DNA of 64,000 bases from an uncultured delta proteobacterium (GCA_963743305.1 CAVUPH010000022.1:53545-117544), one strand, 5' to 3'; positions 1 through 55,642 are shown, counted from the stretch's first letter. A program made the numbers and translations. Notes: generated by a model not told the origin, from the sequence alone.

Positions 1-1345
1 CTTGAAAGAGCATGGGGATACCGGGCGCAGTAAGCACCAAGGCCGCGCCCAGGGTGGAGCGTTTCTTGGAAAACCAGCTATCCACCTTGCCGGGCCAGAT
101 CTCCTCGGGCACGCGGGCCCGCCCATTGGCGACCTCGTCGTGCGACTCGGTATAAATGATCCGCCGAAAGACGTCTAAATCGTAACGATGCTCGATCGCA
201 TTGCGGACCGCCCCCAGATCGCGGAGTTTATCATCGGGGGAAATGACGGCCTGGCGAACGGGGTGAACAAATTCGGCATCCCATTGGGCATTGAAACCCG
301 CACCGCCCGCCCCCACCTCTTTAGTGATCCAGGGGTTATTCTTCATGCTTTCGCCGATGCTGATTTTGTCGGGAAATCGTTGTTTAATTTCCACGTTGAT
401 CCACTGCATCAGGCTCCAGCCTTCGGGGATGTCATTGGCCGGATTGTCGTCATTGCCGTCAATGCTTTTGATATAGGCAATCATGTCCCAGCGCAGGCCG
501 TCGGCGTGGTACTCCTCGAACCACATCAGCGCGTTATCGCGCAGATAGCGGCGCACTTCGTCGCGGCCATAATCGGGACGCGTCTCGCCCCAGGGGGTAT
601 TCGCCCGGCGATCTTCGTAAAAATAGATTCCCCCCTTCTCGTTTTCACTCCAACCGTCAAACTGCCACAAATCAAGATCCGAGGGGCCCAAGTGGTTGTA
701 GACGACATCTACAATCACAGCGATACGTTGCGCATGGGCCGCCTTCACAAATCGCTTGAGGGCATCGGGTCCGCCGTAAATACTTGCAACGGCAAAGGGA
801 TGCGCTGGATTGTAGCCCCACGAAAAGTCGCCCGCAAACTCCGCGATCGGCATCAATTCCACGGCATTGATGCCCAACTGTTGAAGGTAGGGCAGTTTTT
901 CAATGGCGCTATCCAGAGTGCCCGGATGCCCCGCTTCTTTCACATGAAAGGTGCCCACGTGCATCTCGTAAATGACCAGCTCATTCCCCGTTGCCTGGTG
1001 AAAGGCATCATCACCCCAGTCGAAGGCCTTCGGATCATAGATAACTCCATTGCCGATCGAGTGGGTCACCTTTCTGGCATAAGGGTCGATGCGGGAGAGG
1101 AGGCCCCGAGGACCGTGAATCAAGTATTTGTATTCATCCCCTGTTTTGGCCTCCGACACGTCGGTCGACCAGTACCCGTTCTCCTCTTTGGCCAGCGGTG
1201 TTGAGGTCTGGCTCCAGTCATTGAAAGTCCCGGTCAGGTAAACCTTGTCGGCGTGAGGCGCCCAGACGCGGAAGGTTACCCCCTCGGGACCGGGGTTGGC
1301 CCCCAGGCCGGAAGGTTTTGCCACCGTTTCGGCTTTTTCGGACAT
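1..1345 (-). CDS. GH13 1,4-alpha-glucan branching enzyme / maltooligosyltrehalose trehalohydrolase-like protein (3' end runs off the window)
   Basis: Manual minus-strand translation from ATG at 1345 (SD GGAGGGG) gives MSEKAETVAKPSGLGANPGPEGVTFRVWAPHA. GH13 motifs VIVDVVYNHLGP, EYHADGLRWDMIAY and IIYTESHDEVANG are present. Confidence 0.88.
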   Translation of the reverse strand, partial: MSEKAETVAKPSGLGANPGPEGVTFRVWAPHADKVYLTGTFNDWSQTSTPLAKEENGYWSTDVSEAKTGDEYKYLIHGPRGLLSRIDPYARKVTHSIGNGVIYDPKAFDWGDDAFHQATGNELVIYEMHVGTFHVKEAGHPGTLDSAIEKLPYLQQLGINAVELMPIAEFAGDFSWGYNPAHPFAVASIYGGPDALKRFVKAAHAQRIAVIVDVVYNHLGPSDLDLWQFDGWSENEKGGIYFYEDRRANTPWGETRPDYGRDEVRRYLRDNALMWFEEYHADGLRWDMIAYIKSIDGNDDNPANDIPEGWSLMQWINVEIKQRFPDKISIGESMKNNPWITKEVGAGGAGFNAQWDAEFVHPVRQAVISPDDKLRDLGAVRNAIEHRYDLDVFRRIIYTESHDEVANGRARVPEEIWPGKVDSWFSKKRSTLGAALVLTAPGIPMLFQ

Positions 1346-1665
1346 TTTCCCCTCCTTTTTCTTAATCAAGGCCATCGGGCCGGCGCCTGGCCTTGTTTGA
1401 ACCGATAAGGATTATTCTCCGGTCGTTCCCTTTGATGAGAATTTTCGGAGAAAAAAAGTATAGGGTGAGAAAAGGAAGGGGTCAAGAAGCAAATTAAGTC
1501 GGAAGACCAAGGGAAATAACCGAGGCCGGTTTGCTGGAGGCCCCGGGTCACCTTGAAAATACCCAGGCCGACCCGGGTGGAACGGAACCGCGGGCAACGC
1601 GGCAGGCTATTCTCAAAACCTCCTTCCGGTCTTTGAGAGGCTGCTCCGAGGGTTGGAAGTGACCC

Positions 1666-1755
1666 CTACCGTCGTCTGGTCCAATAGTAACCTCCGCCCC
1701 CGCCGAACAATATGACCAATATGACGATGACGATGATGAGCGTTGTAGTATCCAT
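1666..1755 (-). CDS. 29-aa single-pass membrane protein MDTTTLIIVIVILVILFGGGGGYYWTRRR
   Basis: Strong SD (GAGGAG) upstream, a hydrophobic helix, a Gly run and a basic tail. Below the ORF-track length cutoff. Confidence 0.75.
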   Translation of the reverse strand: MDTTTLIIVIVILVILFGGGGGYYWTRRR

Positions 1756-1857
1756 AGTAATTTTCTCCTCCTGATTAGGATTCCGATTTGACTGCTGGGC
1801 CGGCATCCCTTGCCAGGCTTGATTGAGCTTCCCCATCGGTTTGAATATCTATCTTCC

Positions 1858-1927
1858 AATCTAAACCTTTTCCCGGTAAATGAAATAATAAGAACCGTGT
1901 ATTTTTTCAAAAGAATGGCTGTATTTT
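1858..1927 (-). promoter_or_regulatory. Tandem activator box + -10 (motif family A, copy 1)
   Basis: Minus strand reads AAAATACAGCCATTCTTTTGAA AAAATACACGGTTCTTATTATT, then 20 nt, then TAGATT. Confidence 0.55.
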
Positions 1928-2045
1928 TGGTCTAACCCTTCGGGTCCCGATTGGGGCTTTCCTTTTTCCCCGATTCGTAGTACTTTTCACATGATGGCGC
2001 TCATTCCATTAGAGCATTCTCTTGCCTTAACCGGAGGACTAACGG

Positions 2046-4496
2046 ATGAACCGATTTATTTGTATCCATGGGCATTTTTATCAACCTCCCAGAGAAAGCC
2101 CCTGGCTGGAGGCCATTGAGATTCAAGATTCGGCGTTCCCGTACCACGACTGGAACGAGCGGATTACCGCTGAATGCTACGCGGCAAACGCCGTGTCGAG
2201 AATCTGGGATACGGAAGGACGAATCGCCCAACTGGTAAACAATTATGCCAGTATAAGCTTCAACTTCGGTCCGACGGTCTTGCTCTGGATGCAGCGGTAT
2301 GCCCCCGACGCCTATGAGGCCATTCTAGAGGCTGACCGGCAGAGCCTGGAGAAATGCTCCGGTCATGGAAATGCGTTGGCCCAAGCCTACAATCACATGA
2401 TTCTACCGCTGGCCAACAGCCGCGACAAGAACACCCAGATTATCTGGGGAATAAAAGATTTTGAATATCGCTTTGGACGCCAGCCGGAAGGGTTGTGGCT
2501 CCCGGAGACGGCGGTAGATCTGGAAACCCTGGATCTCATGGCTCAGCAGGGCATCGGCTTTGCCATCCTTGCCCCCCGGCAGGCCAGCCGGGTCCGGCCC
2601 ATTGATGGGAATGAATGGCAGGACGTGAGTGGTGGGAAAATCTATCCGGCCATAGCCTACCGGCTGTCGCTGCCGTCCGGCCGCGTCATGAACCTGTTCT
2701 TTTACGACGGTCCCATTGCCCAGGCGCTGGCCTTTGAAGGATTGCTCGACAACGGCGAGGCGTTCGCCAACCGGCTGCTGTCCGCCTTCGCCGACGATTC
2801 TCCTCGCCTCGTCCACATCGCCACGGATGGCGAAAGCTATGGACATCATCATCGCTACGGCGACATGGCCCTGGCGCATGCGCTCCATCACCTGGAGTCC
2901 AACGGGCTGGCCCAGGTGACGAATTACGGCCGATACCTGGAGGATCATCCGCCGGCGTACGAAGTGGAGATCTTTGAAAACAGCTCCTGGAGCTGCGAGC
3001 ACGGCGTAGAACGTTGGCGGTCCGATTGCGGGTGCAACAGCGGCGGCCACCCGGGTTGGAACCAGGGTTGGCGAGCCCCCCTGCGTGCGGCCCTGGACTG
3101 GCTCCGCGATGCCGTGAACCCGGCTTATGAACAACTGGCCGGACAGTTTCTGACCGACCCCTGGGTGGCTCGTGACGACTACATCGACGTCATCGTGGAT
3201 CGATCACCCGAACGCGTCAGGGCGTTTATGAACCGCCACGCCACCAGTCCCTTAAACTCCGAGGACGAGATCACGGTCCTGAATCTCATGGAGCTCCAAC
3301 GCCACCTGATGCTCATGTACACCAGTTGCGGTTGGTTTTTTGACGAGCTTTCCGGGATGGAGACGGTTCAGGTCATACAATACGCCGGCCGGGTTCTGCA
3401 ATTGGCCGACCAGCTTTTTAACGACTCTTTCGAACCCGGCTTTCTCGAACATCTGGAGCGTGCCAAGAGCAACCTGCCTGAACACCGTGACGGCCGCACC
3501 ATTTATGAAAAATTGGTCAGGCCGGCCATGCTCGATATGAAAGATGTGGGCGCCCACTATGCCTTAAGCTCGCTGTTCCAGGATATCGGTGAACGCAGTT
3601 CGATCTATGCCTATTCCGCCACCCGGGAGGACTACCGCAGCTTTCAGGTAGGAGGTTCCAGGCTGGTAATCGGGCGGGCCACGGTCACTTCAGACGTTAC
3701 GCGCGTATCCTCCAGCTTGTGCTTTGGCGTTCTGCATCTTGGTGATCATAGTATCGCCTGCGGGACCGGTGAATATCAAGGCGCGCAAAAATATGAAGCG
3801 CTGGCCAAAGAAATTTCAGCGGCTTTCGCCGGAGCTGACTTTCCGAAGACCATACTACTGCTGGGTAAATACTTCGGGACGTCCACGTATTCTCTGACCT
3901 CGTTGTTTGCCGATGAACGGCGAAAAGTCCTGAATATCATCATGGGGCCGACTCTGAGAGAGGCTGAAGCGGCCTATAGCTCGATTTATGAGCACCATGC
4001 TCCTTTGATTCGCTTTTTAGCCGGGTCCGGGACGCCACGGCCCCAAGTCCTGTCGGTCGCCGCGGACTTGTGCTTGAATGCCAAGTTTCGTAGGGTGCTT
4101 CAAGGGGAGGGTCTTGACCCCGAAGTCATCGGACCTCTTCTGGAAGAAGCTCGTTTGGCAGGCGCCACTCTGGATGCGACGGCTCTCGGCTTATTACTGG
4201 CCGTCAACATTGAGAGTCTGGCCGAGCAACTTCTCGATCAACCTGACGATCTTTCTCGCCTAAAGCTATTGAATAAGGCGGCCCAATTGGTCCGGACTTT
4301 GCCGTTCGAGGTTAATCTCTGGAAAACCCAAAACATCTGCTACAAGATCCTTCACACCCATTGTCCCACCTTAAATGAGGAGGCCGGCCCGGGCAACCAA
4401 AACGCGCAAGAATGGCTACGCCGTTACACGGTTTTGGCCGATAATTTTTTGCTGCGGGTGCCCCAATGTCCCGTAAACAGCAAAGCCGCGCCGTAA
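2046..4496 (+). CDS. Glycoside hydrolase family 57 protein with DUF3536 domain
   Basis: Motifs IHGHFYQPPRE, AQAYNHMILPL, GLWLPETAVD, IATDGESYGHH and MYTSCGWFFDE; SD GGAGG. Confidence 0.9.
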   Translation: MNRFICIHGHFYQPPRESPWLEAIEIQDSAFPYHDWNERITAECYAANAVSRIWDTEGRIAQLVNNYASISFNFGPTVLLWMQRYAPDAYEAILEADRQSLEKCSGHGNALAQAYNHMILPLANSRDKNTQIIWGIKDFEYRFGRQPEGLWLPETAVDLETLDLMAQQGIGFAILAPRQASRVRPIDGNEWQDVSGGKIYPAIAYRLSLPSGRVMNLFFYDGPIAQALAFEGLLDNGEAFANRLLSAFADDSPRLVHIATDGESYGHHHRYGDMALAHALHHLESNGLAQVTNYGRYLEDHPPAYEVEIFENSSWSCEHGVERWRSDCGCNSGGHPGWNQGWRAPLRAALDWLRDAVNPAYEQLAGQFLTDPWVARDDYIDVIVDRSPERVRAFMNRHATSPLNSEDEITVLNLMELQRHLMLMYTSCGWFFDELSGMETVQVIQYAGRVLQLADQLFNDSFEPGFLEHLERAKSNLPEHRDGRTIYEKLVRPAMLDMKDVGAHYALSSLFQDIGERSSIYAYSATREDYRSFQVGGSRLVIGRATVTSDVTRVSSSLCFGVLHLGDHSIACGTGEYQGAQKYEALAKEISAAFAGADFPKTILLLGKYFGTSTYSLTSLFADERRKVLNIIMGPTLREAEAAYSSIYEHHAPLIRFLAGSGTPRPQVLSVAADLCLNAKFRRVLQGEGLDPEVIGPLLEEARLAGATLDATALGLLLAVNIESLAEQLLDQPDDLSRLKLLNKAAQLVRTLPFEVNLWKTQNICYKILHTHCPTLNEEAGPGNQNAQEWLRRYTVLADNFLLRVPQCPVNSKAAP

Positions 4497-4540
4497 ACGT
4501 ATTCTTCCGTTGTTCGGCGGTTACGGTCTAAGTATCTGCA

Positions 4541-4611
4541 AAAATACACCCCTTTCCCTTCAAAAATTACGGGTTCACCCTATTCCCTTCATGGCCTGGC
4601 CCTGTTATCCT
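4541..4611 (+). promoter_or_regulatory. Tandem activator box + -10 (motif family A, copy 2)
   Basis: AAAATAC at 4541, box AAAATTACGGGTTCACCCTATT at 4563-4584, 21 nt, TATCCT at 4606-4611. Confidence 0.7.
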
Positions 4612-4645: not shown

Positions 4646-5056
4646 ATGTCCAGACTGATTAAGATCCTGCACATCGATCCCGATTACCAGATCACCTATC
4701 TCATTTATCGTCACAACTCATCTATCCGGACCTCGGTTCCCCTGAAGACGGCTATTGAGCTTTTGAAAAAAGAGGATTTTGACCTGATCCTATCGGAACC
4801 GCATAACAAGGCCATTCTGAAAAAGACGCCTCAGACCATTGAACCCAAACCCGGCTCGGCCGATGACCAAACTTTTATGCGGGCCATTCAAGGCGATTTC
4901 AGGAAGTACGATCCCATTGCTATTCATAGAAACAGGAGGTGTTCCATGAAACAGGAGGCCGTCATGGATTTAAAAAAAAGGATGTCTGATTTATTTTACG
5001 ACCAATCCTTTTTCTACGGCGTAGGTAGTCAGTGCCCAAATCGAATGCAGGTTTAA
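4646..5056 (+). CDS. Small protein with a degenerate receiver-like N-terminus
   Basis: SD AAGGAGG. KILHIDPD and AIELLKKEDFDLILSE resemble REC beta1 and alpha2-beta3. The C-terminal part overlaps the convergent gene and may not be real. Confidence 0.55.
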   Translation: MSRLIKILHIDPDYQITYLIYRHNSSIRTSVPLKTAIELLKKEDFDLILSEPHNKAILKKTPQTIEPKPGSADDQTFMRAIQGDFRKYDPIAIHRNRRCSMKQEAVMDLKKRMSDLFYDQSFFYGVGSQCPNRMQV

Positions 5057-5653
5057 TTTCTTCATGAGGTTCGAACGATGCTTCTCTACCGTATGGAGAC
5101 TGAGGCAGAGGTAGTCGGCAATGTTCTTGCTGCTATTCCCCTCCCCGATCAATTTCAAAATTTCCCGCTCTCTTGAGGTTAAGGTGTCCCAGGAGGTCTG
5201 GACGGATTCGGACTTTTTCCCGACCAGGTAGCCCTCGATCACCTTTTCGGAGATACTCGGACTGAGTACCCGCTTCCCGTCCAAAATATTCCGGATAGCC
5301 TGAATCAAATCGGTATGACTGGAATCCTTTAAAATATATCCGTCGGCCCCCGCCCGCAGAGCGGCCAGGATGTATTCTTCGGAATCGTTGACGGTCAGGG
5401 CCAGGATTTTTATTTGGGGCCATTTTTTCCTAATTTGCCGGATGGCCTCCACCCCGCCCACCCGCGGCATGGATAAATCCATCAACACCAAGGCGGGTAG
5501 GAGCTTCTCCGCTTGCTGGATGGCCTCCCGCCCGTCCCCGGCTTCGCCGATTACTTCCAGATCCGGGAGAGAGGAAAGGAGCGCCCGCAGTCCCTCCCGG
5601 ATAAGCGTATGGTCTTCGGCAATAAGTACGCCCCTCTTTTCACTGCCGATCAT
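4991..5653 (-). CDS. NarL/FixJ-family response regulator (REC + LuxR HTH)
   Basis: VLIAEDH, LVLMDLSMP, GYILK and LTSREREILKLIGEG...TVEKHRSNLMKKL. Confidence 0.95.
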   Translation of the reverse strand: MIGSEKRGVLIAEDHTLIREGLRALLSSLPDLEVIGEAGDGREAIQQAEKLLPALVLMDLSMPRVGGVEAIRQIRKKWPQIKILALTVNDSEEYILAALRAGADGYILKDSSHTDLIQAIRNILDGKRVLSPSISEKVIEGYLVGKKSESVQTSWDTLTSREREILKLIGEGNSSKNIADYLCLSLHTVEKHRSNLMKKLNLHSIWALTTYAVEKGLVVK

Positions 5654-5782
5654 AGTGCCCTCCTGATATCCTTATCCCTCCCGGGGTTCGACGGGCGAGA
5701 CTAAAGCCTGAACGATCTTTGATCAGGATATTACTTTAAAAGTGAAGAAAAAATCAATACCCGCCAAAAATATTTGAAAGAA

Positions 5783-7960
5783 TTAATCTGCTTGGTTCCC
5801 CCCCCTGATCTCCCCATTCAACGGCCAGGAAATTCCGATAATCGTGCCTTTACCTGGATGGGACTCGACGGAAAAGAAGCCCCCGGATAGTTCCGCCCGC
5901 TCTTTCATGATGGAAAGTCCCATCCCCGTCCCCTGTCCGGCCGCCCCCGGCAGTTGTTCATAATTGAATCCCACCCCGTTGTCCCCGATAGCCAGCTTTA
6001 TATGGCCCTGTTCCCGACTCAAGTGAATCCAAATTCGGGTCGCTTGGGCATGCTTTCCGGCATTGTTCAGGGCTTCCTGGGTTATCCGAAAAATTATGAC
6101 TTTCAACCGTTCCGGCACGTCCTCCTCCCGGACCTCCAACCCTTGTTCGACCGCAATCCGGGAATAGGTCTTTTGAAATTCCCGTGATAACCAGGACAAG
6201 GTGGGAAGAATACCCAGTTCATCCAGGTGGGGAGGCCGTAAATCATGCTGGATCCTCCTGGCCTCACGGATGGTCTCCTGAATGATCGAGATCAGGAAGC
6301 CCAGGGTTTCATTTATCTGTTGGAAATCCCGGTCGGACAAATTGAGAACCAGGTCCTCCAATTTATATTTGAGACCGCTCAGGGAGGCCCCCAGGCTGTC
6401 GTGCATCTCCCGGGCGATTCGCTTTCGTTCATTTTCCTGGGCACATAAAAGCTGGTTGGCCAGGAAACGAAGCTCCCGTTCTGAACTCCGCAGCGCTTCC
6501 TCGGTCGCCTGGCGATCGGTGACCTCCTCCAGAGAAAAAACTAAAGAAGCTACTTCACCCCGATCGTCCAACAACGGGGTCAGGGTCCAGTCCCAGAAGG
6601 TTACCCCCCTCTCGGGATGATCCGGGAAAAAAAAAGGTTTGGCTACCGCCTGAAAGGGGGTCTTGGTTTCCACCACCCGCCGGAAGATAGCCTCATTTTC
6701 TTCGTTAGGGTAGAACTCGAAATGGTTGTGCCCGGGGAAATCGGCTACCGCCCGCTGGCAGGACCGGGCGTAGGATTCGTTGACCCGGAGGAAGTTGAAA
6801 TCCCGGTCCAGAAGGACCAGGGGGGTAATCGTGTCCTTGAAAAAAGATTCCAGTATGCGGGATTGCTCCGCCAGGTGCGCATGGGCTTTTTCCAGTTCAG
6901 CCGTCCGTTCCTGCACCCGGAGTTCCAATTCATCCCTCACCGCTCTGACCGCCTCCGCGGCCTTTTTACTCTCCTCGATGTTAAGGACATGGACCACAAA
7001 TCCCTGGATTTGGTCTACCTCGTTGACGTCGGGGGTATAACTGGCTCGTACCCAGCGGCTATCGCCCCCCTGAAATGGCAATTGACGTTCGTACGTTATC
7101 GATTCCCCGGCCAGCGCCCTTTCCACATAGGGCTTAATTTCTTTCCACTGGGCCTCTCCAAGAATGTCGCTCATATGCCGCCCCGGGATGTCTTCGGCTG
7201 GGAAACCAAACCACCGGGCATAGTTCCGGTTGACCCGGCGATAACGGCCGTCGGTATCCACGTAAGCTATCAGGGCCGGGACCGCTTCCATAACCAAACG
7301 CAGGTCATTTTCCCGATTACGCAGGGCCTCCTCGGCCTGTTTTTGTTCGGTAATGTCCAGCAGGGCCGCCTGACATACCGGTTGGGTTCCCTCCTTCGGC
7401 TCTCCCGGGACCCCCTCGATGCGTACACCGGCCAGGCGGCCTCCGTCCTTAAGCAGGGTCACTTCACAGACCTGCTTGGTCCCGGTGGAAAAAACCTTTT
7501 CCACGAAATCATTAAAGAGGGCGATATCCCCCGGCATCACAAATAATTGAAAACGCCGGTTCACCAGGCGACTCCGCTCCTCTCCCAGCAGGCGAGCCCC
7601 GGTGAGGTTGATTTCAAGGATTTCCCCCTTCGGACCGAAGGTGGCATAGCCGACCGGGGCCAGGTCGTAGAGATCGAAGTATTTGCGGCGGGCCTGCTCG
7701 GCCTCTAAGTGGAGCTGTTGGAGTTCCTGGTTCTGTTGTTCCAGCTCGATCTGATAAACCTCCAGGTCATGGACCAGGGACCGGGAATTCTCCGGTTCCG
7801 GGCCTGGCTGGGTTGCCTTTTGGGGGTCCGTCAGCTCTTCGGCCCGACTGCGCGATTCCCGGCCGATTCTTTCCGCTTTAGAGTTCTGGGAGATCTTTTT
7901 GCTTTTCATATCCAAATCCGAATTCCAGGGAAGGTAGGCGAGATAATTTGATAAGTGCAT
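5783..7960 (-). CDS. Cytoplasmic multi-PAS sensor histidine kinase (HisKA_3); true start may be MKSKK, about 50 nt downstream
   Basis: Three PAS-like segments, H-box ERKRIAREMHDSLG, N-box QEALNNAGKHA, DNGVGF and GMGLSIMKER. Confidence 0.93.
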   Translation of the reverse strand: MHLSNYLAYLPWNSDLDMKSKKISQNSKAERIGRESRSRAEELTDPQKATQPGPEPENSRSLVHDLEVYQIELEQQNQELQQLHLEAEQARRKYFDLYDLAPVGYATFGPKGEILEINLTGARLLGEERSRLVNRRFQLFVMPGDIALFNDFVEKVFSTGTKQVCEVTLLKDGGRLAGVRIEGVPGEPKEGTQPVCQAALLDITEQKQAEEALRNRENDLRLVMEAVPALIAYVDTDGRYRRVNRNYARWFGFPAEDIPGRHMSDILGEAQWKEIKPYVERALAGESITYERQLPFQGGDSRWVRASYTPDVNEVDQIQGFVVHVLNIEESKKAAEAVRAVRDELELRVQERTAELEKAHAHLAEQSRILESFFKDTITPLVLLDRDFNFLRVNESYARSCQRAVADFPGHNHFEFYPNEENEAIFRRVVETKTPFQAVAKPFFFPDHPERGVTFWDWTLTPLLDDRGEVASLVFSLEEVTDRQATEEALRSSERELRFLANQLLCAQENERKRIAREMHDSLGASLSGLKYKLEDLVLNLSDRDFQQINETLGFLISIIQETIREARRIQHDLRPPHLDELGILPTLSWLSREFQKTYSRIAVEQGLEVREEDVPERLKVIIFRITQEALNNAGKHAQATRIWIHLSREQGHIKLAIGDNGVGFNYEQLPGAAGQGTGMGLSIMKERAELSGGFFSVESHPGKGTIIGISWPLNGEIRGGNQAD

Positions 7961-8325
7961 TTAGGGGGAAATTACCATGGTCGGAAAACAAGATCAAGCG
8001 AGACTTTTATCCCTCAATTCCCGGCCATCTCCTCTGCTGATAAACTCCTTCTAAAAGCCCATTCCGACCGTTTCAATCCTTCAGGTTTTTCTCAAAAATG
8101 CTTGGTTTTTAACCCTTCTGGGGCATAAACTGCTTAGTCAATTACAGAAGTTAGCGGACATGATAATTCTTGCTTCGGCCTATTCCAGGGGTTCATTTAT
8201 TCGCCCGTCTATAAGCTCCCGATGGCGCTTGATGGCACCCTGGAAACCACCACTACCCGCCGGCCGCATTTACCGAATAAGGGGAATTCGCAGAAAGCAG
8301 CGGGAATTACCCCCAAAAGAGATTA

Positions 8326-8396
8326 AGAATACCTCCATTTTCCTTTCAAAGTAACGGCTTCCACTTATTGAATCTATTTCCTTTTTCCTCTATCCT
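8326..8396 (+). promoter_or_regulatory. Tandem activator box + -10 (motif family A, copy 3)
   Basis: AGAATAC at 8326, box AAAGTAACGGCTTCCACTTATT at 8348-8369, 21 nt, TATCCT at 8391-8396. Confidence 0.62.
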
Positions 8397-8442: not shown

Positions 8443-8535
8443 ATGATTTTCGTGGCCTTCATTCTCCTTGGTTTGATCGGCTGGGCCTTATTTTATCCCC
8501 GATTGGACGGCTTCCTGACCAGGCGAAAAATTTAA
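8443..8535 (+). CDS. 30-aa small membrane protein MIFVAFILLGLIGWALFYPRLDGFLTRRKI
   Basis: SD GGAGG, a hydrophobic helix and a basic tail, directly downstream of a family-A promoter. Confidence 0.55.
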   Translation: MIFVAFILLGLIGWALFYPRLDGFLTRRKI

Positions 8536-8560: not shown

Positions 8561-8707
8561 CCTCCATATTTGGAGGCCCCGCCAAATATGGAGGTCCAGC
8601 CCATCGTTTCTACCTTCTTTGCTGTTTGCTTCTATTAATATAACTAGCTGGTTTCAGTGTTTTTTTAAGACTTTTAATTTTTTTCGGGCTGTTGGTCAAC
8701 TACTTGC
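8561..8707 (+). promoter_or_regulatory. sigma54 promoter with double-palindrome enhancer and IHF-like site (motif family B, copy 1)
   Basis: CCTCCATATTTGGAGG at 8561-8576 and CCGCCAAATATGGAGG at 8579-8594. TAACTAGCTGGTT (IHF-like) near 8641. TTGGTCAACTACTTGCA has GG at 8694-5, N10, GC at 8706-7. Confidence 0.8.
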
Positions 8708-8857
8708 ACTTTGGATATTTTGTGAAGGATATTTGCCAAGCCCGAAAAAAGACAAGGGATGGAGACAGGATTTACGAAAACGCATAGACCCCCAACCATG
8801 ATCCAGGAATTGGGGAAATCTTGGCTCAGATAGAGCTTAGAAAGGAGGCCGGATACC

Positions 8858-8992
8858 ATGCAACTCATATTATCGCCACAGCCGGTGGTTGCGCTAATCG
8901 CGGGAATATTGATTCTTCTAATCCCGAGACTATTGAATTATATCGTTGCCATTTATCTCATTATATTTGGCATTCTCGGGTTGATCCGCTGA
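8858..8992 (+). CDS. DUF3096-family small membrane protein (44 aa)
   Basis: MQLILSPQPVVALIAGILILLIPRLLNYIVAIYLIIFGILGLIR; SD AAGGAGG. Confidence 0.85.
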   Translation: MQLILSPQPVVALIAGILILLIPRLLNYIVAIYLIIFGILGLIR

Positions 8993-9050: not shown

Positions 9051-9203
9051 ATGGGACTTATATTGATCGTCATCTTAGTCCTGCTACTCATCGGCGTGCT
9101 GCCCACCTGGAACCATAGTAAATCCTGGGGGCCCTATCCCAGCGGCGGAATCGGACTGATCCTCCTGATTCTGCTCATCCTGTTTCTAATGGGGCGAATC
9201 TAA
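9051..9203 (+). CDS. DUF3309-family small membrane protein (50 aa)
   Basis: MGLILIVILVLLLIGVLPTWNHSKSWGPYPSGGIGLILLILLILFLMGRI; SD AAGGAG. Confidence 0.9.
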   Translation: MGLILIVILVLLLIGVLPTWNHSKSWGPYPSGGIGLILLILLILFLMGRI

Positions 9204-14378: not shown

Positions 14379-14386
14379 TGGTCGTT

Positions 14387-14457
14387 AAAATACTGCCATT
14401 TTTCTGCTAAAATTACAGTTTCCCCCCATTCCAATCATTGCCCGTCCCGGTTATCCT
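14387..14457 (+). promoter_or_regulatory. Tandem activator box + -10 (motif family A, copy 4)
   Basis: AAAATAC at 14387, box AAAATTACAGTTTCCCCCCATT at 14409-14430, 21 nt, TATCCT at 14452-14457. Confidence 0.68.
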
Positions 14458-14494: not shown

Positions 14495-14639
14495 CCTCAA
14501 TATATGGAGGCCCCGCCAAATATGGAGGTCCGGCACCTCATTTCAACCTTCTTTACGGTGAGCTCCATTAATATAACTTGTTGATATAAAATAGGTTTAA
14601 GACTTATTTTTTTCCACCGGCTATTGGTAGGCTACTTGC
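14495..14639 (+). promoter_or_regulatory. sigma54 promoter with double-palindrome enhancer and IHF site (motif family B, copy 2)
   Basis: CCTCAATATATGGAGG at 14495-14510 and CCGCCAAATATGGAGG at 14513-14528. TAACTTGTTGATA (reverse complement TATCAACAAGTTA, IHF consensus WATCAAN4TTR) near 14574. GG at 14626-7, N10, GC at 14638-9. Confidence 0.82.
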
Positions 14640-14815
14640 AATGGTATTTAATAGAATGGAATTTAAATAAATGAACTTAAATAAATTTAGGAGGCGTAAA
14701 ATGAATTGAGACATCAAGGATGGTTAAACTCGAAAAAAAAATTTGGGACCTGAAGCAAGAAATTTAGTCCAAAAAACCGGAAACTTGTCATTAATCACCC
14801 AAAAGGAGACCGATC

Positions 14816-38748: not shown

Positions 38749-38893
38749 CCTCCATATCTGGAGGTTCCGCCAAATATGGAGGCCTGGCCGCAAGTTCAAA
38801 CGCGACTGCCTTTCGCACCTATCTACTTAACATACTGTTTTCAATAGATGTTTCCATGTCCGGCCAATCTCCGGTTGTTGGCAACCTCTTTGC
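38749..38893 (+). promoter_or_regulatory. sigma54 promoter with double-palindrome enhancer and IHF-like site (motif family B, copy 3)
   Basis: CCTCCATATCTGGAGG at 38749-38764 and CCGCCAAATATGGAGG at 38767-38782. TAACATACTGTTT near 38828. TTGGCAACCTCTTTGCA has GG at 38880-1 and GC at 38892-3. Confidence 0.82.
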
Positions 38894-38906
38894 AATTGCT
38901 GACCTT

Positions 38907-39845: not shown

Positions 39846-39857
39846 CCTGACGGGCTA

Positions 39858-39928
39858 GAAATACCGTCTTTTATTCAATAAAATACAGGATTAACCCTAT
39901 TTGAAAATTATTTATGTCAGAGTAATTT
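39858..39928 (+). promoter_or_regulatory. Tandem activator box + -10 (motif family A, copy 5)
   Basis: GAAATAC at 39858, box AAAATACAGGATTAACCCTATT at 39880-39901, 21 nt, TAATTT at 39923-39928. Confidence 0.68.
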
Positions 39929-41126: not shown

Positions 41127-41146
41127 TTAGTGGGCACGATCATTCT

Positions 41147-41754: not shown

Positions 41755-41811
41755 ATCCTGACGGTGGGTCGAGTCAAAATAGGCACTTTGGTTGCCGGAA
41801 AGGAGGTCTCG

Positions 41812-48500: not shown

Positions 48501-51500
48501 TTTCGACAACTTGCGACGGAGCTTGCTGCCCGTGACTATTGTAGGTTTGCTGGTCACCTCCTGGCTGATTTCTCCTCAGCTCGGATGGATCGCCGCGCTG
48601 CTGGTCGCCACGCAACTGCTCAGCCAGCCTTTGGCGTCGCCCTTGACCATGGCGACCACCCGCCGGGGCTGGAAGGGATTCTCCTTCTCGAAAGTGGGCC
48701 ACGATCTGCGGCGGGCCGTGGTGGATGGTGCCCTGCTTCCCCACCAGGCCGGGTTGGCCCTGGACGCCATTCTCCGGGTCGGGTATCGCCGCCTTTTCTC
48801 TCACCGGGGGTTGCTCCAGTGGACTTCGGCCCAGACCCTGTCAGGGCGGGACAGCGATCGACTGCCCCGCTTCGTGCTCGCCATGGGCCTGGCGAGTGTC
48901 TTCAGCGGGCTGGTGGTTTGGGCGCTGTGGTCTCGGATGCCTTCGAGCCTGGCCCCGGCGGGCCCCTGGCTCTTCTTATGGTTTTTATCCCCCCTGATCG
49001 GCTGGCTCTTGAACCTTCGGCCGCCGGTACTGCAACCGCAAGGTCTGCTGTCTGAAAAGGATCGCCGCTTCCTGAGGCAGGTGGCCCGACGAACCTGGCG
49101 TTATTTTTCGGACTTGGTCAACGAAGAGACGTCCTGGCTTCCACCCGACAACTACCAGGTCTCCCCCCGGAACCACCTGGCCATGAGGACCAGTCCAACC
49201 AACATTGGTCTCTGGATGGTCAGCACGCTGGCTGCCGCCGATTTTGGATACCTGACGGTGGATGAGGTCATCGACAAGCTGACCCGGACCATGAAAACGA
49301 TCGATAGGCTGGAGCGTTATGAGGGGCATCTATTAAATTGGTATGATATTCAGACCTTGTCCCCTCTCGAACCTCGATACGTCTCCGCCGTGGACAGCGG
49401 AAATCTTTTGGGCGCCCTCTGGTCTCTGGAGCAGGGACTTTTAGAACTCCTTCGGGGACCTGTCCTGGACGGGAAAGCCTTCGAGGGCCTGCGGGACACC
49501 GACGAAATTTTGAACCGGATGGGCGCCGTGGAAGGCCTGTCGGTCCCCAGGGCTCAGACTTTCGAAGAACTAGGGCGCGCCGGGGAAGACCCGCCGGCTC
49601 AGCTCGCCGACGCGCTCCGTCTGTTGAGGCGGTTGGGGGGCAGCCCTGAAAGCACGTCCGGGGAAGCGCCGGAGTCCGCCGCCAGGGGGGGGGAAGCGGT
49701 TTATTGGGCCGGGCAGATGGACCAGCAGGTCGGGGCTTGGCGCAAAATCGCGGATCGTTATCTTGGCTGGATCGAAATCCTTGCTGAAAAAGGGGAAGAG
49801 GAACTCGTCCCACTGGGGCCGGAAGCCCTGCCGGCCATTCGTCGGGCCTTATCTCAGGCGCCTTCACTCCTTGACTTGGCCCAGGGGCGCGTCGACTGTA
49901 TCTCGATCCTGCAATCGATCCGGGCCCGGGCAGCGCCGGCTGTCGGCCCCCTCGTGGAATGGCTTGACCCGTCTGCTGGAAGCTTTCGCCAACTCGAGAT
50001 GGCTGGCCGGTGAAGTCCTGGGTTTGATCGAAGGGCTCATCCAGGACGGACGCCGGTTGTCCGAATCGATCACCATGCGTTTTTTGTATGACCCCGAACG
50101 GCGGTTGTTCTCCATCGGCTTCAACGTTTCCGAAGGCCGCTTGGATGGCTCCTACTATGACCTCCTGGCGAGCGAGGCGCGGCTGGGGAGTTTTGTCGCC
50201 ATCGCCCGGGGGGATGTGCCCGTAGAGCACTGGTTTTCCCTGAGTCGTCCCTACGGCCTGATCGGTCGGCGGCGGGTGCTGCTGAGTTGGACCGGGACGA
50301 TGTTCGAATATCTGATGCCCCTGATTTTTCAACAATCCCTGGGAAACACTCTTCTGGATGAAGCGGCCCGGGAAGCGGTGGCGGTCCAGGTGGCCTATGG
50401 CCGGCGGCGACAAGTGCCCTGGGGGATCTCGGAGTCGGCCTACAGCGATCTGGATCTCAACCAGACCTACCAATACAAGGCTTTCGGCGTTCCGGCGCTG
50501 GGATTGAAACGCGGCTTGGAGGAACAAGTCGTCGTAGCACCCTATGCCTCCCTGCTGGCGGTGTCCATGGCGCCGCGAGAGACGGTGCGGAATCTGAAAC
50601 GACTGGCCGGCTTGGGACTCCTTCAGGATTATGGCTACTACGAAGCGATTGACTTCAGTCGATTATCGGGTCGCGAACGCGAGCGGGGAGTCGTCGTCCA
50701 GGCCTACATGGCCCATCATCAAGGCATGAGTTTCCTGTCGCTGACCAATTTCCTTCAGGGCAATGCGATCCGGCGTCGTTTTCACGGCGACCCCCGGGTG
50801 CGGGCCGTTGAGGCCTTGCTCCAGGAACGGGTCCCCTCTTCGCCTCCGCTGCACCAGATCTCCACCCGTGAAGGAGCGCCTGCGGCCAAAAGCGTCGGCG
50901 AAGTCGCGCCCTCGGCGAGCAAGTTCGATACCCCCCATACCCGGACGCCCAAAACCCAACTCCTCTGTAACGGTCGGTATGGTTTGATGATCACGAACGC
51001 CGGCGGCGGTTACAGCCGCTGGGACAACCGGGAGATAACCCGCTGGCGGTCGGATCGGACCCAGGACCCCTGGGGGACTTTTTGCTACCTCCAAGAGGCC
51101 GACGCGGATCGGGTCTGGTCCAACACCTATGGGCCGGTGGGCGGGAAGGTGGAGGCCTATTCGGTCAACTTCGCCCTGGATCGGGCGGTTTTTCTGCGTA
51201 CGGATCACGGAATTCAAACCAAAACCGAAGTGGTCGTCTCACCGGAAGACGATGTGGAGATCCGGCGGGTCACCCTGACCAACCGTTCCCTGCGCACCCG
51301 CCGACTTAATCTCACCAGCTATGTGGAACTCTCGCTGGCGCCGCACAACGCCGACCGGCAGCATCCGGCCTTCAATAAACTGTTCATCCACACCGAGGCG
51401 GTCGCTCAGCAGCAAGCCCTCCTGGCGCACCGTCGCCCTCGCGGGACCGACGATCCCCCCATCTTTGTGGCGCACCGCCTGACGCTTAATCGAGCCGAGG

Positions 51501-54500
51501 ACCAACCTTGGCAGTTCGAGACCGACCGGCGCCGATTCATCGGCCGAGGGCGGACGCTCGCCAATCCGATGGGGGTCTTTCAGGGGCTCAGCAACAGCCA
51601 GGGTTTTGTCCTGGACCCGATCCTCAGCCTGCGCCGGAACCTGACGCTGAAGGCGGGGGAGGCGGTCCAGGTTTCCCTGATTCTCGCTGCCGGCGATACC
51701 CGCCAACAGGTCTTGGGGCTGATGGGCAAGTATAGCGAATCCCACGCCATCGATCGGGCCCTGGACTTTGCCTGGGCCTCGGCCCAGCTTGAATTGCGGG
51801 TCATGCGCCTCCAGCCCGATGAAGCCCGTCGCTTCCAGGAACTCGCCGGGCACCTGCTTTTTCCCAATCCCCGCCTGCGCCCTTCCGCCGAGCGTCTCCA
51901 AGAGAACCGCCAGGGCCAGGCCGGCTTATGGCCCTATGGAATTTCGGGCGACTTGCCCATGGCCGTGGTGACCATAGGCGAGGCGCGGGAGATCAATCTG
52001 GTCCGCCAAATGCTTCAGGCCCATACCTATTGGCGACGGCACGGATTGCTGGCCGACCTGGTGATCCTCAACGAGGAAGCCGGCGGCTATGAGCAGCCGT
52101 TGCGGGAACGCCTCGAAGGGTTGATCCAGGCCCATTCCACGGTAACCGGCAGAGATCAGCCGGGTGGGATCTTTCTGCGCAGCACGGATCAAATTCCGGC
52201 GGAAGACCTGACGCTCCTCTTGACCGCGGCCGCGGTGGTGCTGGTGGCGGCCCGAGGCCTCCTCCCTCAACAGTTGGGATTGCCGGCAGAGGTCACCGAG
52301 ACGCCGGAACTTTTGGTCAAAAAGCGCGTCCCGCGGGAGCCTTCGGCGGCGCTGCCTTTCCTGGAGCTGCCCTACTTCAACAGCCTCGGCGGGTTTACCC
52401 CGGATGGTCGGGAATATGCCATCTATCTCGGTCCCGGCACCCATACCCCGGCGCCCTGGGTGAACGTCATGGCCAATCCGAACTTCGGGACCCTGGTCAG
52501 CGAGACGGGCTCCGGCTTTACCTGGTTTGGCAACAGCCAACGCAATCGTCTGACGCCCTGGTCGAACGACCCGGTCACGGATCCCCCGGCCGAGGCCCTC
52601 TACCTTCGGGACGAGGAGACCGGTGTGACCTGGACGCCGACCGCTGCACCGATCCGCGAGGAGACCGCCTACCGGGTGCGGCATGGAGCGGGGTACACGG
52701 TTTTCGAGCACAACAGCCAGGGGATTGAACAGGAGCTGACGGTCTTCGTTCCCGTGGATGAAAACGGTGGAGACCCGGTCAAGCTGCAGCGGCTGCGGAT
52801 ACGAAACGACTCCGCCAGGCCGCGCAAATTGTCGCTAACGTATTATCTGGAGTGGACCCTGGGGGAAAACCGCGAAGCGTCTCAAATGCAGGTCGTGACC
52901 CACTGGGATGACGAAATCCAGGCCTTGATCGCCCGGAATCGCTATCACCCCGAGTACGGGGACCGGGTCGCCTTCGCCGCTATCAATCCGCCGGCGGATT
53001 CCTACAGCGGCGACCGCACCGCGTTCATCGGCCGCAACCGATCGCTGGGAAACCCGGCGGCCATGGGACGAATCCGGCTCTCCTCTCGGACGGGGGCGGG
53101 TCTCGACCCCTGCGCGGCGTTGCGGGTCACCTTGGATCTGTCTCCCGGCGGGCGGGCGGAGGTTATCTGCCTGCTCGGCCAGGCCGAGTCTCTGGAAGAG
53201 GCCCAGCACCTGGTTTCAACCTACCGGGAAGGCCTGGCCTTGGAGGCCGCCCTTAGCCGGACAAAAGCCTGGTGGGATGATCTCTTAGGGACGATCGAAG
53301 TGCGGACTCCCGAACGCGCCGCGGACTTCCTGATCAACCGCTGGCTACTCTACCAGAGCCTGAGCTGTCGAATCTGGGGACGGTCCGCCTTTTACCAGTC
53401 CGGGGGGGCCTTCGGCTTTCGAGATCAACTGCAGGACGTGATGGCGCTGATCTACGCCGCCCCCCAGTTGGCGCGCCGGCACCTGTTGCTCGCGGCGAGC
53501 CGTCAGTTCAAGGAAGGCGATGTCCAGCATTGGTGGCATCCGCCGAGTGGCGCGGGGACCCGGACGCGGATCTCCGATGATCCCCTCTGGCTGCCCTACG
53601 TCGTCGCTCATTACGTCCGCGGCAGCGGCGATGTGGACCTGCTCAACCGGGAGGTCCCTTTTCTCGAGGGGCCGCTGCTAAAAAGCGGACAGCCCGAAAG
53701 CTTCGGCACACCGGAGATCGCCTCGGAACGGGCCACTCTGTTTGAGCACTGCCGGCGTGCCGTTCAGTGCAGCCTGAATTTTGGGCCTCATGGGTTGCCC
53801 CTCATGGGGGCCGGGGATTGGAATGATGGGATGAACCGGGTGGGGGCCGGGGGTCGGGGGGAGAGCGTTTGGCTGGCCTGGTTCCTGGTGGATGTGCTGC
53901 AGGGCATGGTGGAGTTGTCCGAGGTGCTGGATCAGGCCGAATTGAGCCGGACCTATCAGCAGGAGAGGAAAGCCCTGATTGAGCGGGTGGAGCGATCCGC
54001 CTGGGATGGGGAGTGGTATCTTCGGGCGATTTTCGACCAGGGCACTCTCGTCGGGTCATCGTCCAGTCAGGAGGCGAAGATCGATTCCCTGCCTCAATCG
54101 TGGGCCTGGCTGAGCGGCGCCGCCGACCCCGATCGCGCGGGACGGGCTTTAGAATCCGGCTGGAAATATCTGGTTAAGGAGGAGGAAGGCCTGGTCCTGC
54201 TTTTCGATCCACCCTTTGACCGGTCGGAGCCCTCGCCCGGTTATATCCAGGCCTACCCTCCGGGAGTGAGGGAGAACGGAGGCCAATACACCCAGGCCGC
54301 CCTGTGGTTTGCCATGGCCCTGGCGCGTCGAGGGGATGGGCGCCGGGCGGTAGAACTGTTGCGTCTGCTCAACCCGATTGAGCGGGCCCGTGACCCGGAA
54401 ACCCTTTGGCGCTACGGGTTGGAACCTTACGTGGCGGCGGCGGATATTTACCGCTTGCCCGGACGGATCGGTCAGGGCGGTTGGTCCTGGTATACCGGTT

Positions 54501-54791
54501 CGGCCGCCTGGATGTACCGGGCCTGGGTGGAAGAGGTCCTGGGTTTGAAAATACGCGGAGATACGCCTGCAACTGAATCCGGTCATCCCCGGGAATTGGG
54601 AAGGCTTCCATTTGCGCTATCGTCACGGTGAAGCGGTCTACGACATTCAGGTCGAGAATCCGGAAGGTCTGGAACGAGGCGTGGACTGGGTCGAGCTGGA
54701 TGGGCGGCGTCTACCGGAGGGGCTGATTCCACTGGAACGGACGCTGATCAAGCATCGGGTGGTCGTCCGTCTGGGGCCGCCGCGGCTCTAA
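45559..54791 (+). CDS. Cyclic beta-1,2-glucan synthase (Cgs/NdvB/ChvB type: GT84 + cyclisation + GH94 domains), with apparent frameshifts near 49970 and 54565
   Basis: EWILDNEY, GWERKRGKLEE, ITLDSDT, YHGKGIYD, LSHDLIEG, RWIRGDWQ, RTSPTNIG, YDLLASEARL, WGISES, GAFGFRDQLQD, GDWNDGMN and ENGGQYT. ORFs 45559-50013 and 49763-54631 are consecutive pieces, and a third frame ends at TAA 54791. Confidence 0.9.
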
Positions 54792-54917
54792 AGGCCGCAA
54801 CCTCTATCCCTTTCATTCCCCTCCGCCCTGACTGCTGAAGTAAAATTGGAAGGCGGGGTCCTGGCGGAGAGCAGGCGGCACGACCATTCCCGCCAAAGTA
54901 GGGTCCCCGTACCATGA

Positions 54918-54988
54918 AAAATACCGTAGATCTTCGTTTAAAATCACGGATTCACCCTATTTATTTCTTATTTCATTTTCTATATTCT
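54918..54988 (+). promoter_or_regulatory. Tandem activator box + -10 (motif family A, copy 6)
   Basis: AAAATAC at 54918, box AAAATCACGGATTCACCCTATT at 54940-54961, 21 nt, TATTCT at 54983-54988. Confidence 0.72.
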
Positions 54989-55066
54989 TTATTTTAAAGA
55001 TGAAAACATCTCTTCTTCCCGGGGTTTATTCCCTAGCGACTATTTACGGGGGAAAGGAGGCATCCT

Positions 55067-55327
55067 ATGGAAACGATTACCATTCCGATGAAAGAGGAGA
55101 ACATCAGCCTGGAGTTGGCTTGGGGAATTTCCTGGTTTCTGGCCAAAATCTATAATCCGGGAACCTCCCTGGCGGCCTGGTCCGATAAAAAGAGAGGCAA
55201 ATATTCACCTTCCCGATTCGAATGCGCCGCCGAAGGAATTTCGGATTGGGAAGAATACGGCCGGCATCATGGGGGACGAATAAAGTTTATCGTTGGCAGC
55301 GCTGATTATGTGTTTATCTATACCTGA
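55067..55327 (+). CDS. AF1514-family protein
   Basis: LAAWSDKKRGKYSP...WEEYGRHHGGRIKFIVGSADYVFIY; SD AAGGAGG. Confidence 0.75.
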   Translation: METITIPMKEENISLELAWGISWFLAKIYNPGTSLAAWSDKKRGKYSPSRFECAAEGISDWEEYGRHHGGRIKFIVGSADYVFIYT

Positions 55328-55342
55328 TAGAGGAGAAAGATC

Positions 55343-55642
55343 ATGGTAAAAACCGCCTTACTGGTTCGATTGGAGGCCAAACCCGGAAAAGAGTCGGCTG
55401 TTGAGGAATTTATAAAGTCCGGTCTGCCGATCGTCCAGGATGAACCGGCCACGATCGCCTGGTTCGGAATCCGTCTGGGACCGGCCACCTTCGGCATCTT
55501 CGACGCCTTTCCGGACGAACCCGGCCGACAGGCCCATCTGGCGGGCAGGGTGGCGGCCGCCCTGATGGCCAACGCTTCCGAATTGTTGGCCCAGCCGCCG
55601 CTTATTGAGAAATGTGATATCCTGGCGGCCAAGCTTCCTTAG
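55343..55642 (+). CDS. ABM-domain (putative quinol monooxygenase) protein
   Basis: LLVRLEAKPGKE...EPATIAWF...TFGIFDAFPDEPGRQAHL. Confidence 0.88.
   Translation: MVKTALLVRLEAKPGKESAVEEFIKSGLPIVQDEPATIAWFGIRLGPATFGIFDAFPDEPGRQAHLAGRVAAALMANASELLAQPPLIEKCDILAAKLP

Follow-up and report, generated by a model that had tools for sequence, protein, structure and literature searches.

A 64,000-nucleotide (nt) stretch of DNA from an uncultured delta proteobacterium (hereafter the window, C22:53545-117544 on contig C22 of the assembly) carries nine promoters of two kinds: three sigma-54 promoters with upstream enhancers (family A) and six promoters built on a repeated AAAATAC motif (family B). We conclude that A and B are separate regulons, one much larger than the other, which overlap at two paralogous loci here, A probably under a PAS-domain sigma-54 activator and B under a subfamily of NarL/GerE response regulators. 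To the whole of this reading, two independent regulons overlapping in one island and working as proposed below, we assign a probability of roughly 0.7. Sequence and comparative data establish the motifs and their spacing, where they occur in the genome, and how they are linked to regulator genes. A preliminary description of the window had proposed nine promoters of two rigid architectures, and repeats, reading of the DNA and genome scans bore this out. Coordinates without a contig prefix refer to the window.

The assembly (4.9 Mb, 43 contigs) is 90% complete with 5.7% contamination. Close relatives of one encoded protein are found in metagenome-assembled genomes (MAGs) labelled uncultured delta proteobacterium, Syntrophaceae, Smithellaceae, Smithella, Syntrophus, Desulfatiglandales and Desulfobacterales. 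Because of these labels we take the host, an uncultured anaerobic deltaproteobacterium, to be a Syntrophales-like member of the Desulfobacterota. Repeat finding recovered a 48-nt family at 8553, 14487 and 38741 and a 22-nt family at 4563, 8348, 14409, 39880 and 54940; the sixth B member (1929, - strand) came from the whole-genome scan, beyond repeat finding. The family A features and the genes that follow them are:

8561..8594, + strand: enhancer 1, palindrome CCTCCATATTTGGAGG, 5 nt, CCAAATATGGAGG
8630..8652, + strand: conserved AT-rich block ATTAATATAACT between enhancer and promoter, a candidate IHF bending site
8693..8708, + strand: sigma-54 -24/-12 element TGGTCAACTACTTGCA, before genes for DUF3096 (8858-8992), DUF3309 (9051-9203) and FecR/DUF6600 (9309-11828)
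14495..14528, + strand: enhancer 2, a tandem enhancer
14625..14640, + strand: sigma-54 -24/-12 element TGGTAGGCTACTTGCA, with an LTXXQ/Spy-like first gene (14816-15319), then a 56-aa open reading frame (ORF; 15764-15934), YtxH (16004-16270), CsbD (16368-16547) and a 63-aa membrane ORF (16687-16878)
38749..38782, + strand: enhancer 3, a tandem enhancer
38879..38894, + strand: sigma-54 -24/-12 element TGGCAACCTCTTTGCA, before an ABM gene (38907-39242, ATG at predicted +3) and a 176-aa ORF (39315-39845)

Each A copy consists of a 16-bp palindrome (CCTCCATATTTGGAGG or a near variant), 5 nt, CCAAATATGGAGG, a partly conserved stretch and the -24/-12 element. Two further copies lie on C22 outside the window, at C22:21984-22023, before a PLD/cardiolipin-synthase-like gene, and at C22:47583-47622. 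At all five loci a TGG(C/T)N-N6-TTGCA element is present with its GG and GC exactly 10 nt apart, the end of the proximal box is 97-99 nt from the GG, and the enhancer is centred at -140 to -142 from the predicted start. The AT-rich block between enhancer and promoter reads ATTAATATAACT in two copies, TGTTAAT-type blocks also occur, and the IHF consensus WATCAANNNNTTR is matched by eye at 14.57 kb only. The 13-mer CCAWATWTGGAGG has seven matches at five loci in the genome, every one on C22. A 40-nt enhancer matrix scores 26-61 at the five loci, against 14.6 for the next best match and 13.5 in a reversed-genome control (both strands). The strict pattern TGG[CT]A[CT]-N5-TTGC has no match in the window, the A elements having matched relaxed forms. 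The genome holds a single rpoN (one PF04552 match, 203.8 bits, C6:194608-195081). The assignment of family A to sigma-54 and an enhancer, as first proposed, is thus supported by the -24/-12 elements at five of five loci, the presence of rpoN and a cognate activator gene that abuts one enhancer.

Two candidates were set aside. The enhancer at C22:21987 had been considered as a minus-strand copy with a defective promoter; a canonical element is present on the plus strand, and this was rejected. An enhancer-like match at 32674 lies inside the coding frame of a YflT gene, without a promoter, and was taken as chance.

The sigma-54 interaction domain has 41 matches in the genome, exactly one of which is on C22. 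This activator gene (C22:47645-49405, - strand) lies ~4 kb upstream of the window. It encodes a low-complexity N-terminus, a coiled-coil, one PAS domain, a linker, an AAA+ domain with GAFTGA, an AAA lid and a Fis-type helix-turn-helix, HTH_8, in that order (Pfam: PF00158, 7.5e-70; HTH_8, 1.1e-6; GAFTGA is present in the translation). Only 23 nt separate the gene end from the enhancer, which is followed by the canonical promoter TGGCAACCCCTTTGCA, a 15-codon remnant that starts like the ABM gene, and then CsbD, a 54-aa ORF, VIT1 and a low-affinity iron permease. This activator has no equivalog in NCBIfam, and neither have the response regulator, kinase, ABM protein or pseudo-receiver.

The same arrangement recurs in relatives. 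Of the 20 same-family genomes (G001-G020), 15 contain the exact 13-mer; it is absent from 20 genomes that represent 20 other families of the phylum, and a reversed-pattern control gives 0-1 matches per genome. The 13-mer is found on the same contig as the best activator orthologue and within 6 kb of it in G001, G005, G008, G009, G010, G011 and G012, and within 100 nt of the activator gene end in G001, G005 and G009. We also collected 79 activator loci from named Desulfobacterota MAGs, of which 20 were read for 260 nt after the activator gene and 13 annotated downstream. The exact TGGAGG-type enhancer pattern matched at one of the 79, and a TTGAGG variant was seen on reading the DNA: at 15 of the 20 inspected loci a tandem enhancer of variant form (CCCTCAAYATATTGAGG, 5 nt, CCAAATATTGAGG) follows the activator stop codon. 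In 14 of these 15 the 260 nt also show a TTGGCA-N5-TTGC element downstream, complete or cut off after its 5' part by the end of the stretch; the enhancer of L031 is too near the edge. The change of one arm from TGGAGG to TTGAGG between lineages, with the rest kept, is as expected of a co-evolving protein-site pair. Downstream of the activator, the 13 annotated loci include ABM genes (6), CsbD (2, one weak), DsbD-AhpC/TSA fusions (2), glutaredoxin (1) and DUF883 with a holin-X-like gene (1). Because this linkage recurs across MAG loci, we regard the module of activator, enhancer, sigma-54 promoter and ABM gene as old and widespread.

Another of the 20 inspected loci, L029, has the first enhancer box only. 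This lone box stands right after the activator gene and continues directly into AAAAAATACAGGGAACCCATTATTTACC, a B-like motif, which looks like a sigma-54 promoter replaced by one of the B type.

In family A, activator dimers would bind the adjoining pair of 16-bp palindromes, whose centre lies ~141 nt before the start, and bending of the DNA at the AT-rich block would bring the activator to sigma-54 RNA polymerase at the -24/-12 element, where ATP hydrolysis by the activator would open the promoter. The PAS domain would gate activation in response to a signal that is probably redox- or oxygen-related. The ancestral target would have been the ABM-domain gene directly behind the activator gene, and the enhancer-promoter cassette would then have been copied, in the host's family, to five places on one contig. 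The predicted targets are the cardiolipin-synthase-like gene, the CsbD-VIT1-iron permease genes, the DUF3096-DUF3309-FecR-like genes, the Spy-like-YtxH-CsbD genes and ABM.

In three of the five A promoters the ATG is at the predicted +3, leaving no space for a Shine-Dalgarno sequence (38879-38909; C22:22120-22137; the C22:47470 region), and the ABM gene, the 15-codon remnant and the cardiolipin-synthase-like gene begin with common first codons, MIL/PV..RMKI. In relatives, ATGATCCTGG follows TTGCA by 11-13 nt (loci L027, L030, L033 and L135-L144). From the predicted promoter geometry, the ABM mRNA looks leaderless and sigma-54-driven. Compared with PDB sequences, the ABM gene matched only uncharacterised ABM-fold proteins.

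The closest known counterpart of the A activator is OrpR of Desulfovibrio vulgaris. OrpR is likewise a single-component PAS-AAA+-HTH protein from the same phylum, acts at an imperfect palindrome beside its own gene and controls a small local regulon (PMC8359166). OrpR requires IHF (PMC8359166). The two differ in their sensing domains: the OrpR article attributes redox sensing to three conserved PAS cysteines holding an Fe-S cluster (PMC8359166), whereas the A activator has one cysteine in its first 275 residues. Compared by site and description, the palindromes also differ (GGGCGYRTTTTGCGCCC for OrpR, CCTCCATATTTGGAGG here), as do the targets, which are the orp genes for OrpR and ABM, CsbD and others for the A activator.

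The family B promoters of the window, and the regulator and kinase genes beside them, are:

1858..1929, - strand: B promoter, motif 1929-1880, -10 TAGATT 1863-1858, before the gene of a 29-aa hydrophobic membrane peptide (1666-1755, -)
4539..4611, + strand: B promoter, motif 4539-4588, -10 TATCCT 4606-4611, before the gene of a small receiver-like protein (from 4646)
4991..5653, - strand: NarL/GerE response regulator (REC + GerE), one of three paralogues
5783..7960, - strand: partner histidine kinase with three PAS domains, HisKA_3 and HATPase_c
8324..8396, + strand: B promoter, motif 8324-8373, -10 TATCCT 8391-8396, before a 30-aa peptide ORF (8443-8535); divergent from the kinase-regulator operon and reading toward enhancer 1
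14385..14457, + strand: B promoter, motif 14385-14434, -10 TATCCT 14452-14457, 110 nt upstream of enhancer 2
39856..39928, + strand: B promoter before ElaB-like DUF883 (40014-40451) and a 214-aa ORF (40482-41126); farther 3' are SHOCT (41431-41754), DUF5670 (41764-41952) and BON (42107-42421)
54916..54988, + strand: B promoter before DUF5619 (55067-55327)

The B motif spans 50 nt. A matrix from the five window copies retrieved 21 sites, and one refinement on the informative columns raised this to 24; unrestricted iteration drifted into AT-rich DNA (3701 matches) and was discarded. In the genome, 24 sites on 12 contigs score at least 25, compared with a reversed-genome maximum of 20.2, and C22, which makes up 2.4% of the assembly, holds six of them. 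Together with 25 sites from relatives they give a 49-site consensus, aAAAATAC..t.tTtTt.t...aAAAATAC....TT.aCccTATTTattTt, then 15 nt, then tAa..Tt. A TAnnnT starts exactly 24 nt after the TATTT adenine at 13 of the 24 own sites and within 1 nt of this position at 19; of the 49 sites, 29 have it at the modal position and 40 no more than 1 nt from there. With TAnnnT taken as the -10, CCCTATTT falls at -40 to -33, the proximal AAAATAC at -55 to -49 and the distal AAAATAC at -77 to -71. Proximal units in relatives often form a clear palindrome, AAATACAG-N6-CTGTATTT, centred near -43.5. Judged by this predicted geometry, the proximal unit is that of a class-II activator, overlapping the -35. The sites had been described as NarL-type boxes, and this does not hold in detail: they are not NarL heptamers, since only AAAATAC is conserved and the bases after TAC carry less than 0.4 bits.

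The first genes after B sites encode DUF1579, NrfH-NrfA, a CheY-like receiver, two glycine-zipper operons, HSP20, LTXXQ, glyoxalase, an outer-membrane efflux protein, FG-GAP, AHSA1, 5'-nucleotidase, ElaB-like and DUF5619 proteins, and two paralogous pseudo-receivers. The pseudo-receivers, P0001 (4646-5056) and its C42 paralogue P0002 (L007:2231-2506), are each B-driven and each beside a regulator paralogue. Their first ~60 residues resemble half a receiver domain (KILHIDPD ... DLILSEP), without the phospho-acceptor Asp at its usual place, and neither has a Pfam or NCBIfam match. They may be a feedback component.

Several lines of evidence tie family B to the regulator at 4991-5653 and its close kin. 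Its paralogues lie at C42:87865-88515 (71% identity) and C1:18489-19136 (62%); all three have the recognition helix TVEKHR(S/A)NLMxKL in common and adjoin a multi-PAS/GAF HisKA_3 kinase. For the three genes the distance to the closest B site is 455, 360 and 3 nt; no B site occurs within 20 kb of two less similar GerE regulators (47% and 41% identity). In relatives, 16 orthologue loci (146,232 nt) contain 25 B sites above a score of 20.5, spread over 14 of the 16 loci, vs none at 15 control loci from the same genomes (143,386 nt), the controls being other GerE regulators and other sigma-54 activators. Elsewhere the B matrix has two matches in the 79 activator loci (809,821 nt), and 30 in the whole of the host's own genome.

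The presence of the regulator was then compared with counts of the core B pattern (up to two mismatches, against a reversed control) across the 20 same-family genomes, with orthologues called at 59% identity or more. The 14 genomes with an orthologue gave motif/control counts of 14/5, 33/3, 25/2, 3/1, 17/5, 18/0, 10/9, 39/13, 32/7, 32/9, 31/10, 36/8, 54/8 and 32/8, and the six without one gave 3/6, 5/9, 6/11, 5/4, 7/10 and 8/13. For G013-G020, regulator status was predicted from the motif counts before the search, and all eight predictions were correct. The earlier proposal that the NarL-type regulator is the one encoded at 4991-7960 is supported at the level of this subfamily by the adjacency, the loci of relatives and the presence and absence across 20 genomes.

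The same data bear on whether another activator, for example of the AraC type, binds B, NarL-type genes being merely frequent targets. The 22-nt direct repeat overlapping the -35 would fit the geometry of AraC/XylS-type activators, whose direct repeats lie ~21 nt apart. Yet the sites follow the regulator subfamily over 20 genomes, including the eight predictions made in advance, and they stand at the orthologue loci vs none of the controls; furthermore, no other regulator gene recurs beside the B sites examined. We therefore consider an AraC-type activator improbable.

In family B, a phosphorylated NarL/GerE regulator, paired with a cytoplasmic multi-PAS/GAF HisKA_3 kinase, would bind the AAAATAC-type half-sites, which form a distal unit around -70 and a proximal one, AAAATAC-N10-(G/C)TATTT, with its centre near -43.5. 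Bound to the unit overlapping the -35, the regulator would recruit sigma-70 polymerase to the TAnnnT -10 at its fixed distance, in class-II-type activation. At least 24 promoters would in this way drive genes for small membrane peptides and for ElaB-like, Spy-like, HSP20, glycine-zipper, DUF5619, NrfHA, pseudo-receiver and CheY-like proteins. For both regulons, DNA binding, the sensed signals, the transcription starts and a role in stress are predictions from sequence.

DevR/DosR, of the dormancy regulon of Mycobacterium tuberculosis, is a NarL/GerE-family regulator with GAF-domain HisKA_3 kinases that acts at a few dozen promoters, including that of HSP20/alpha-crystallin, through sites overlapping the -35. 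The B system would resemble it in regulator family, kinase type, regulon size, HSP20 target and -35 overlap. The DosR box is a 20-bp GGGACT..AGTCCC palindrome, whereas B uses AAAATAC and occurs in a different phylum. NarL of E. coli resembles the B regulator in its REC + GerE domains and HisKA_3 partner. The B regulator, however, scores 167 bits against the NarL model, below the cut-off of 250, and 145 against NarP (cut-off 343), and NarL binds TACYYMT heptamers in a 7-2-7 arrangement, in contrast to AAAATAC units 22 nt apart.

Several observations weigh against the two-regulon picture. The regulator is present in G008 (10/9) and G004 (3/1) with little or no B enrichment, and four of the 20 inspected activator loci are without an enhancer. 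The same-family genomes share ancestry, so the phyletic counts make the support look stronger than it is. In both families the start sites are predictions from promoter geometry alone, placed ~12 nt after the GC in A and ~7 nt after the TAnnnT in B. While 17 of the 24 B sites lie outside greedy ORFs of at least 80 aa, seven overlap such calls, which are 5' extensions of the longest ORFs or short ORFs with no Pfam match or unscanned; we tentatively read these calls as over-extended 5' ends or unsupported short ORFs. The stress role is drawn from family names only, and B also fronts the non-stress genes NrfHA, an outer-membrane efflux protein, a sugar transferase and FG-GAP.

To the same side belong some resemblances to heat-shock promoters. 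Family B could consist of sigma-32 (RpoH) promoters with CCCTATTT as the -10 and the A-run as the -35, the adjacency of regulator genes being secondary. CCCTATTT/CCCCATTT resembles the sigma-32 -10 consensus CCCCATNT, TTGAAA- or TTCAAA-like bases stand 13-14 nt upstream at some sites, HSP20 is among the B targets, and RpoH is present in close relatives. The B matrix, however, gives the DNA before groES a score of -11.6 and that before dnaK one of -16.8, the supposed -35 lacks a conserved TTG, and the best-conserved bases are two ATAC blocks 22 nt apart for which sigma-32 has no need. The downstream TAnnnT at its fixed distance would also be left unexplained, and G006, G009 and G010 have an RpoH-like gene and no enrichment, which tracks the response regulator. 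We judge a sigma-32 origin of family B very improbable.

At groES itself (C14:173.2-173.57 kb) a CIRCE-like inverted repeat, TTAGCACTG-N9-GAGTGCCAA, precedes the gene and suggests HrcA control. The gene appears to be frameshift-split into two matches.

The preliminary description had joined both promoter types into a single dual-input regulon, citing their stacking in front of the same operon. The stacking is real on reading the DNA, B standing upstream of A at 8.3-8.7 kb and at 14.4-14.6 kb. A single regulon is not supported, as A comprises five promoters on one contig and B at least 24 on 12 contigs. The A motif occurs without the regulator or B enrichment in G009, G010 and G016, and no B site was found within 350 nt upstream of the A enhancer at 11 enhancer matches in seven relatives, where the best scores were all negative. 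Over 92 nt, the A blocks at 8.5 and 14.5 kb show 84% identity; as the two stacked loci have this block in common, a single duplication may lie behind the stacking. Their B parts could not be aligned convincingly with MAFFT. The B transcript is inferred to start ~95 nt (14.4 kb) or ~160 nt (8.3 kb) upstream of the enhancer and to read through it, which would make the two promoters tandem promoters.

The identity of the A blocks, together with the first ABM codons common to three A promoters, could also be explained if the repeats were a mobile or recombining DNA cassette with no regulatory role. Against this, conservation among B sites is confined to the motif positions while their spacers differ, A and B are both oriented toward downstream genes, A is kept beside its activator across orders, and there are no flanking transposases or terminal repeats. 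We give a purely mobile cassette next to no credence.

What the two regulons are for is less firmly indicated. CsbD, YtxH, BON/OsmY-like proteins, ElaB and HSP20 are members of general-stress regulons in other phyla, and these effector families overlap with the targets of A and B. Judged by gene content alone, the original proposal of a general stress regulon fits these families. The SigB, RpoS and EcfG responses each use a dedicated alternative sigma factor, whereas control here would lie with an activator of sigma-54 and a two-component activator of sigma-70. The sigma factors of the assembly are RpoD, RpoN and two of the FliA/WhiG type, with RpoD and the FliA/WhiG-type pair as the sole matches to the RpoS and RpoH models; there is no RpoS or SigB equivalog in it (EcfG/PhyR was not searched), and no match exceeded the RpoS cut-off in 21 genomes. 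Sigma-32 passes its subfamily cut-off in same-genus relatives (275.7 vs 241 bits) and was not found in the host assembly, most likely because RpoH falls in the 10% that is absent.

We put forward, tentatively and well short of even odds, that the host's Syntrophales family, without RpoS, SigB and EcfG, splits its general-stress effectors, among them CsbD, YtxH, BON, ElaB, Spy-like, HSP20 and small membrane peptides, between a PAS sigma-54 activator and DosR-like NarL-type systems acting via sigma-70. This would be a fourth general-stress wiring, with the PAS activator/ABM module as its ancient core across Desulfobacterota. It is likewise possible, if doubtful, that both circuits are real and neither serves general stress, A being a narrow redox or oxidant response around ABM and thiol-redox genes and B a DosR-like switch for low energy or a changed electron acceptor. 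The A module accompanies DsbD-AhpC/TSA fusions, glutaredoxin and ABM in other MAGs and has only five promoters here, while genes for NrfHA, cytochrome c, HSP20 and CheY-like proteins follow B sites, and GAF and PAS domains are present in the B kinases. Both target sets are nevertheless dominated by CsbD, YtxH, BON, ElaB-like, Spy-like, glycine-zipper and DUF3309-type peptides, which belong to general-stress regulons in other phyla.

There is a precedent for sigma-54 control of general-stress-labelled genes in the Desulfobacterota, as the D. vulgaris sigma-54 regulome article annotates the DVU3305 regulon as 'general stress response, transmembrane transport' (PMC4641369). According to the same article, DVU3305 is of the two-component response-regulator type with GAFSGA, in contrast to the single-component PAS activator here (PMC4641369). 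CsbD, BON and monooxygenase do not appear in the main text of that article (PMC4641369), and term searches for CsbD and general stress returned nothing in a Geobacter RpoN regulon paper (PMC2725144) or a 2025 cross-phylum sigma-54 survey (PMC12316311). The full-text literature searched holds no description of an activator/ABM/CsbD regulon or of the AAAATAC motif. The A and B circuits are uncharacterised members of two well-known kinds of circuit.

The gene content reported earlier for the island was mostly confirmed by Pfam, which recovered DUF3096, DUF3309, LTXXQ/Spy-like, YtxH, CsbD, DUF883/ElaB-like, DUF5670, BON, ABM and DUF5619. The exception is a supposed GH13 gene (2046-4496), which is GH57+DUF3536. 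The promoter placed in front of it is also absent, as no A or B site faces 2046-4496 and the B site at 1929 points the opposite way. A 1622-aa protein (49763-54631) combines a glucoamylase-like domain with GH94 supersandwich and catalytic domains, and its C-terminal part is cyclic beta-1,2-glucan synthase-like. No A or B promoter was found upstream of this gene, and the glucan genes of the island, which had been counted as regulon members, therefore fall outside both regulons.

The FecR/DUF6600 gene (9309-11828), the first large gene of the A operon at 8.7 kb, contains at 10761-11795 six tandem 147-nt units that encode 49-aa repeats (65.7% GC). The four core copies are 96-100% identical and the outer two 84% and 64%. 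Scattered between genes are further repeats of 85-89% identity, which pair 41145-41309 with 58667-58821 and 42780-42826 with 61154-61200, and also occur upstream of groES (C14:173.3 kb). They carry GGGGTACCCACCCCAAAGGGCGAAGCG-like cores and appear to be a REP-like family unrelated to A or B.

Split or truncated genes are numerous: in the window they lie at 28127-30419, 14097-14378, 18390-18614, 20285-21535 and 21672-22616, and the C42 and C1 kinases (L131, L132) are affected too. They include a phosphoketolase broken into three, the N-terminal part of an Ldh, part of a transaldolase, a short PGM, fragments with PAS/HisKA domains and two multi-PAS kinases. The pattern points to assembly indel errors or to genuine decay, and conclusions about gene loss are limited accordingly.

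Syntrophic deltaproteobacteria are key to methanogenic carbon turnover and mostly uncultured, and almost nothing is known of their regulation. The analysis provides two testable assignments of regulator to motif with defined target lists, namely the PAS activator with its palindrome and ABM core, and the NarL-type subfamily with AAAATAC and at least 24 promoters. Both motifs can be used to annotate regulons in related MAGs and to read metatranscriptomes. Small stress proteins that are under a stress sigma factor in other phyla can sit under ordinary activators, which bears on the evolution of general stress responses.

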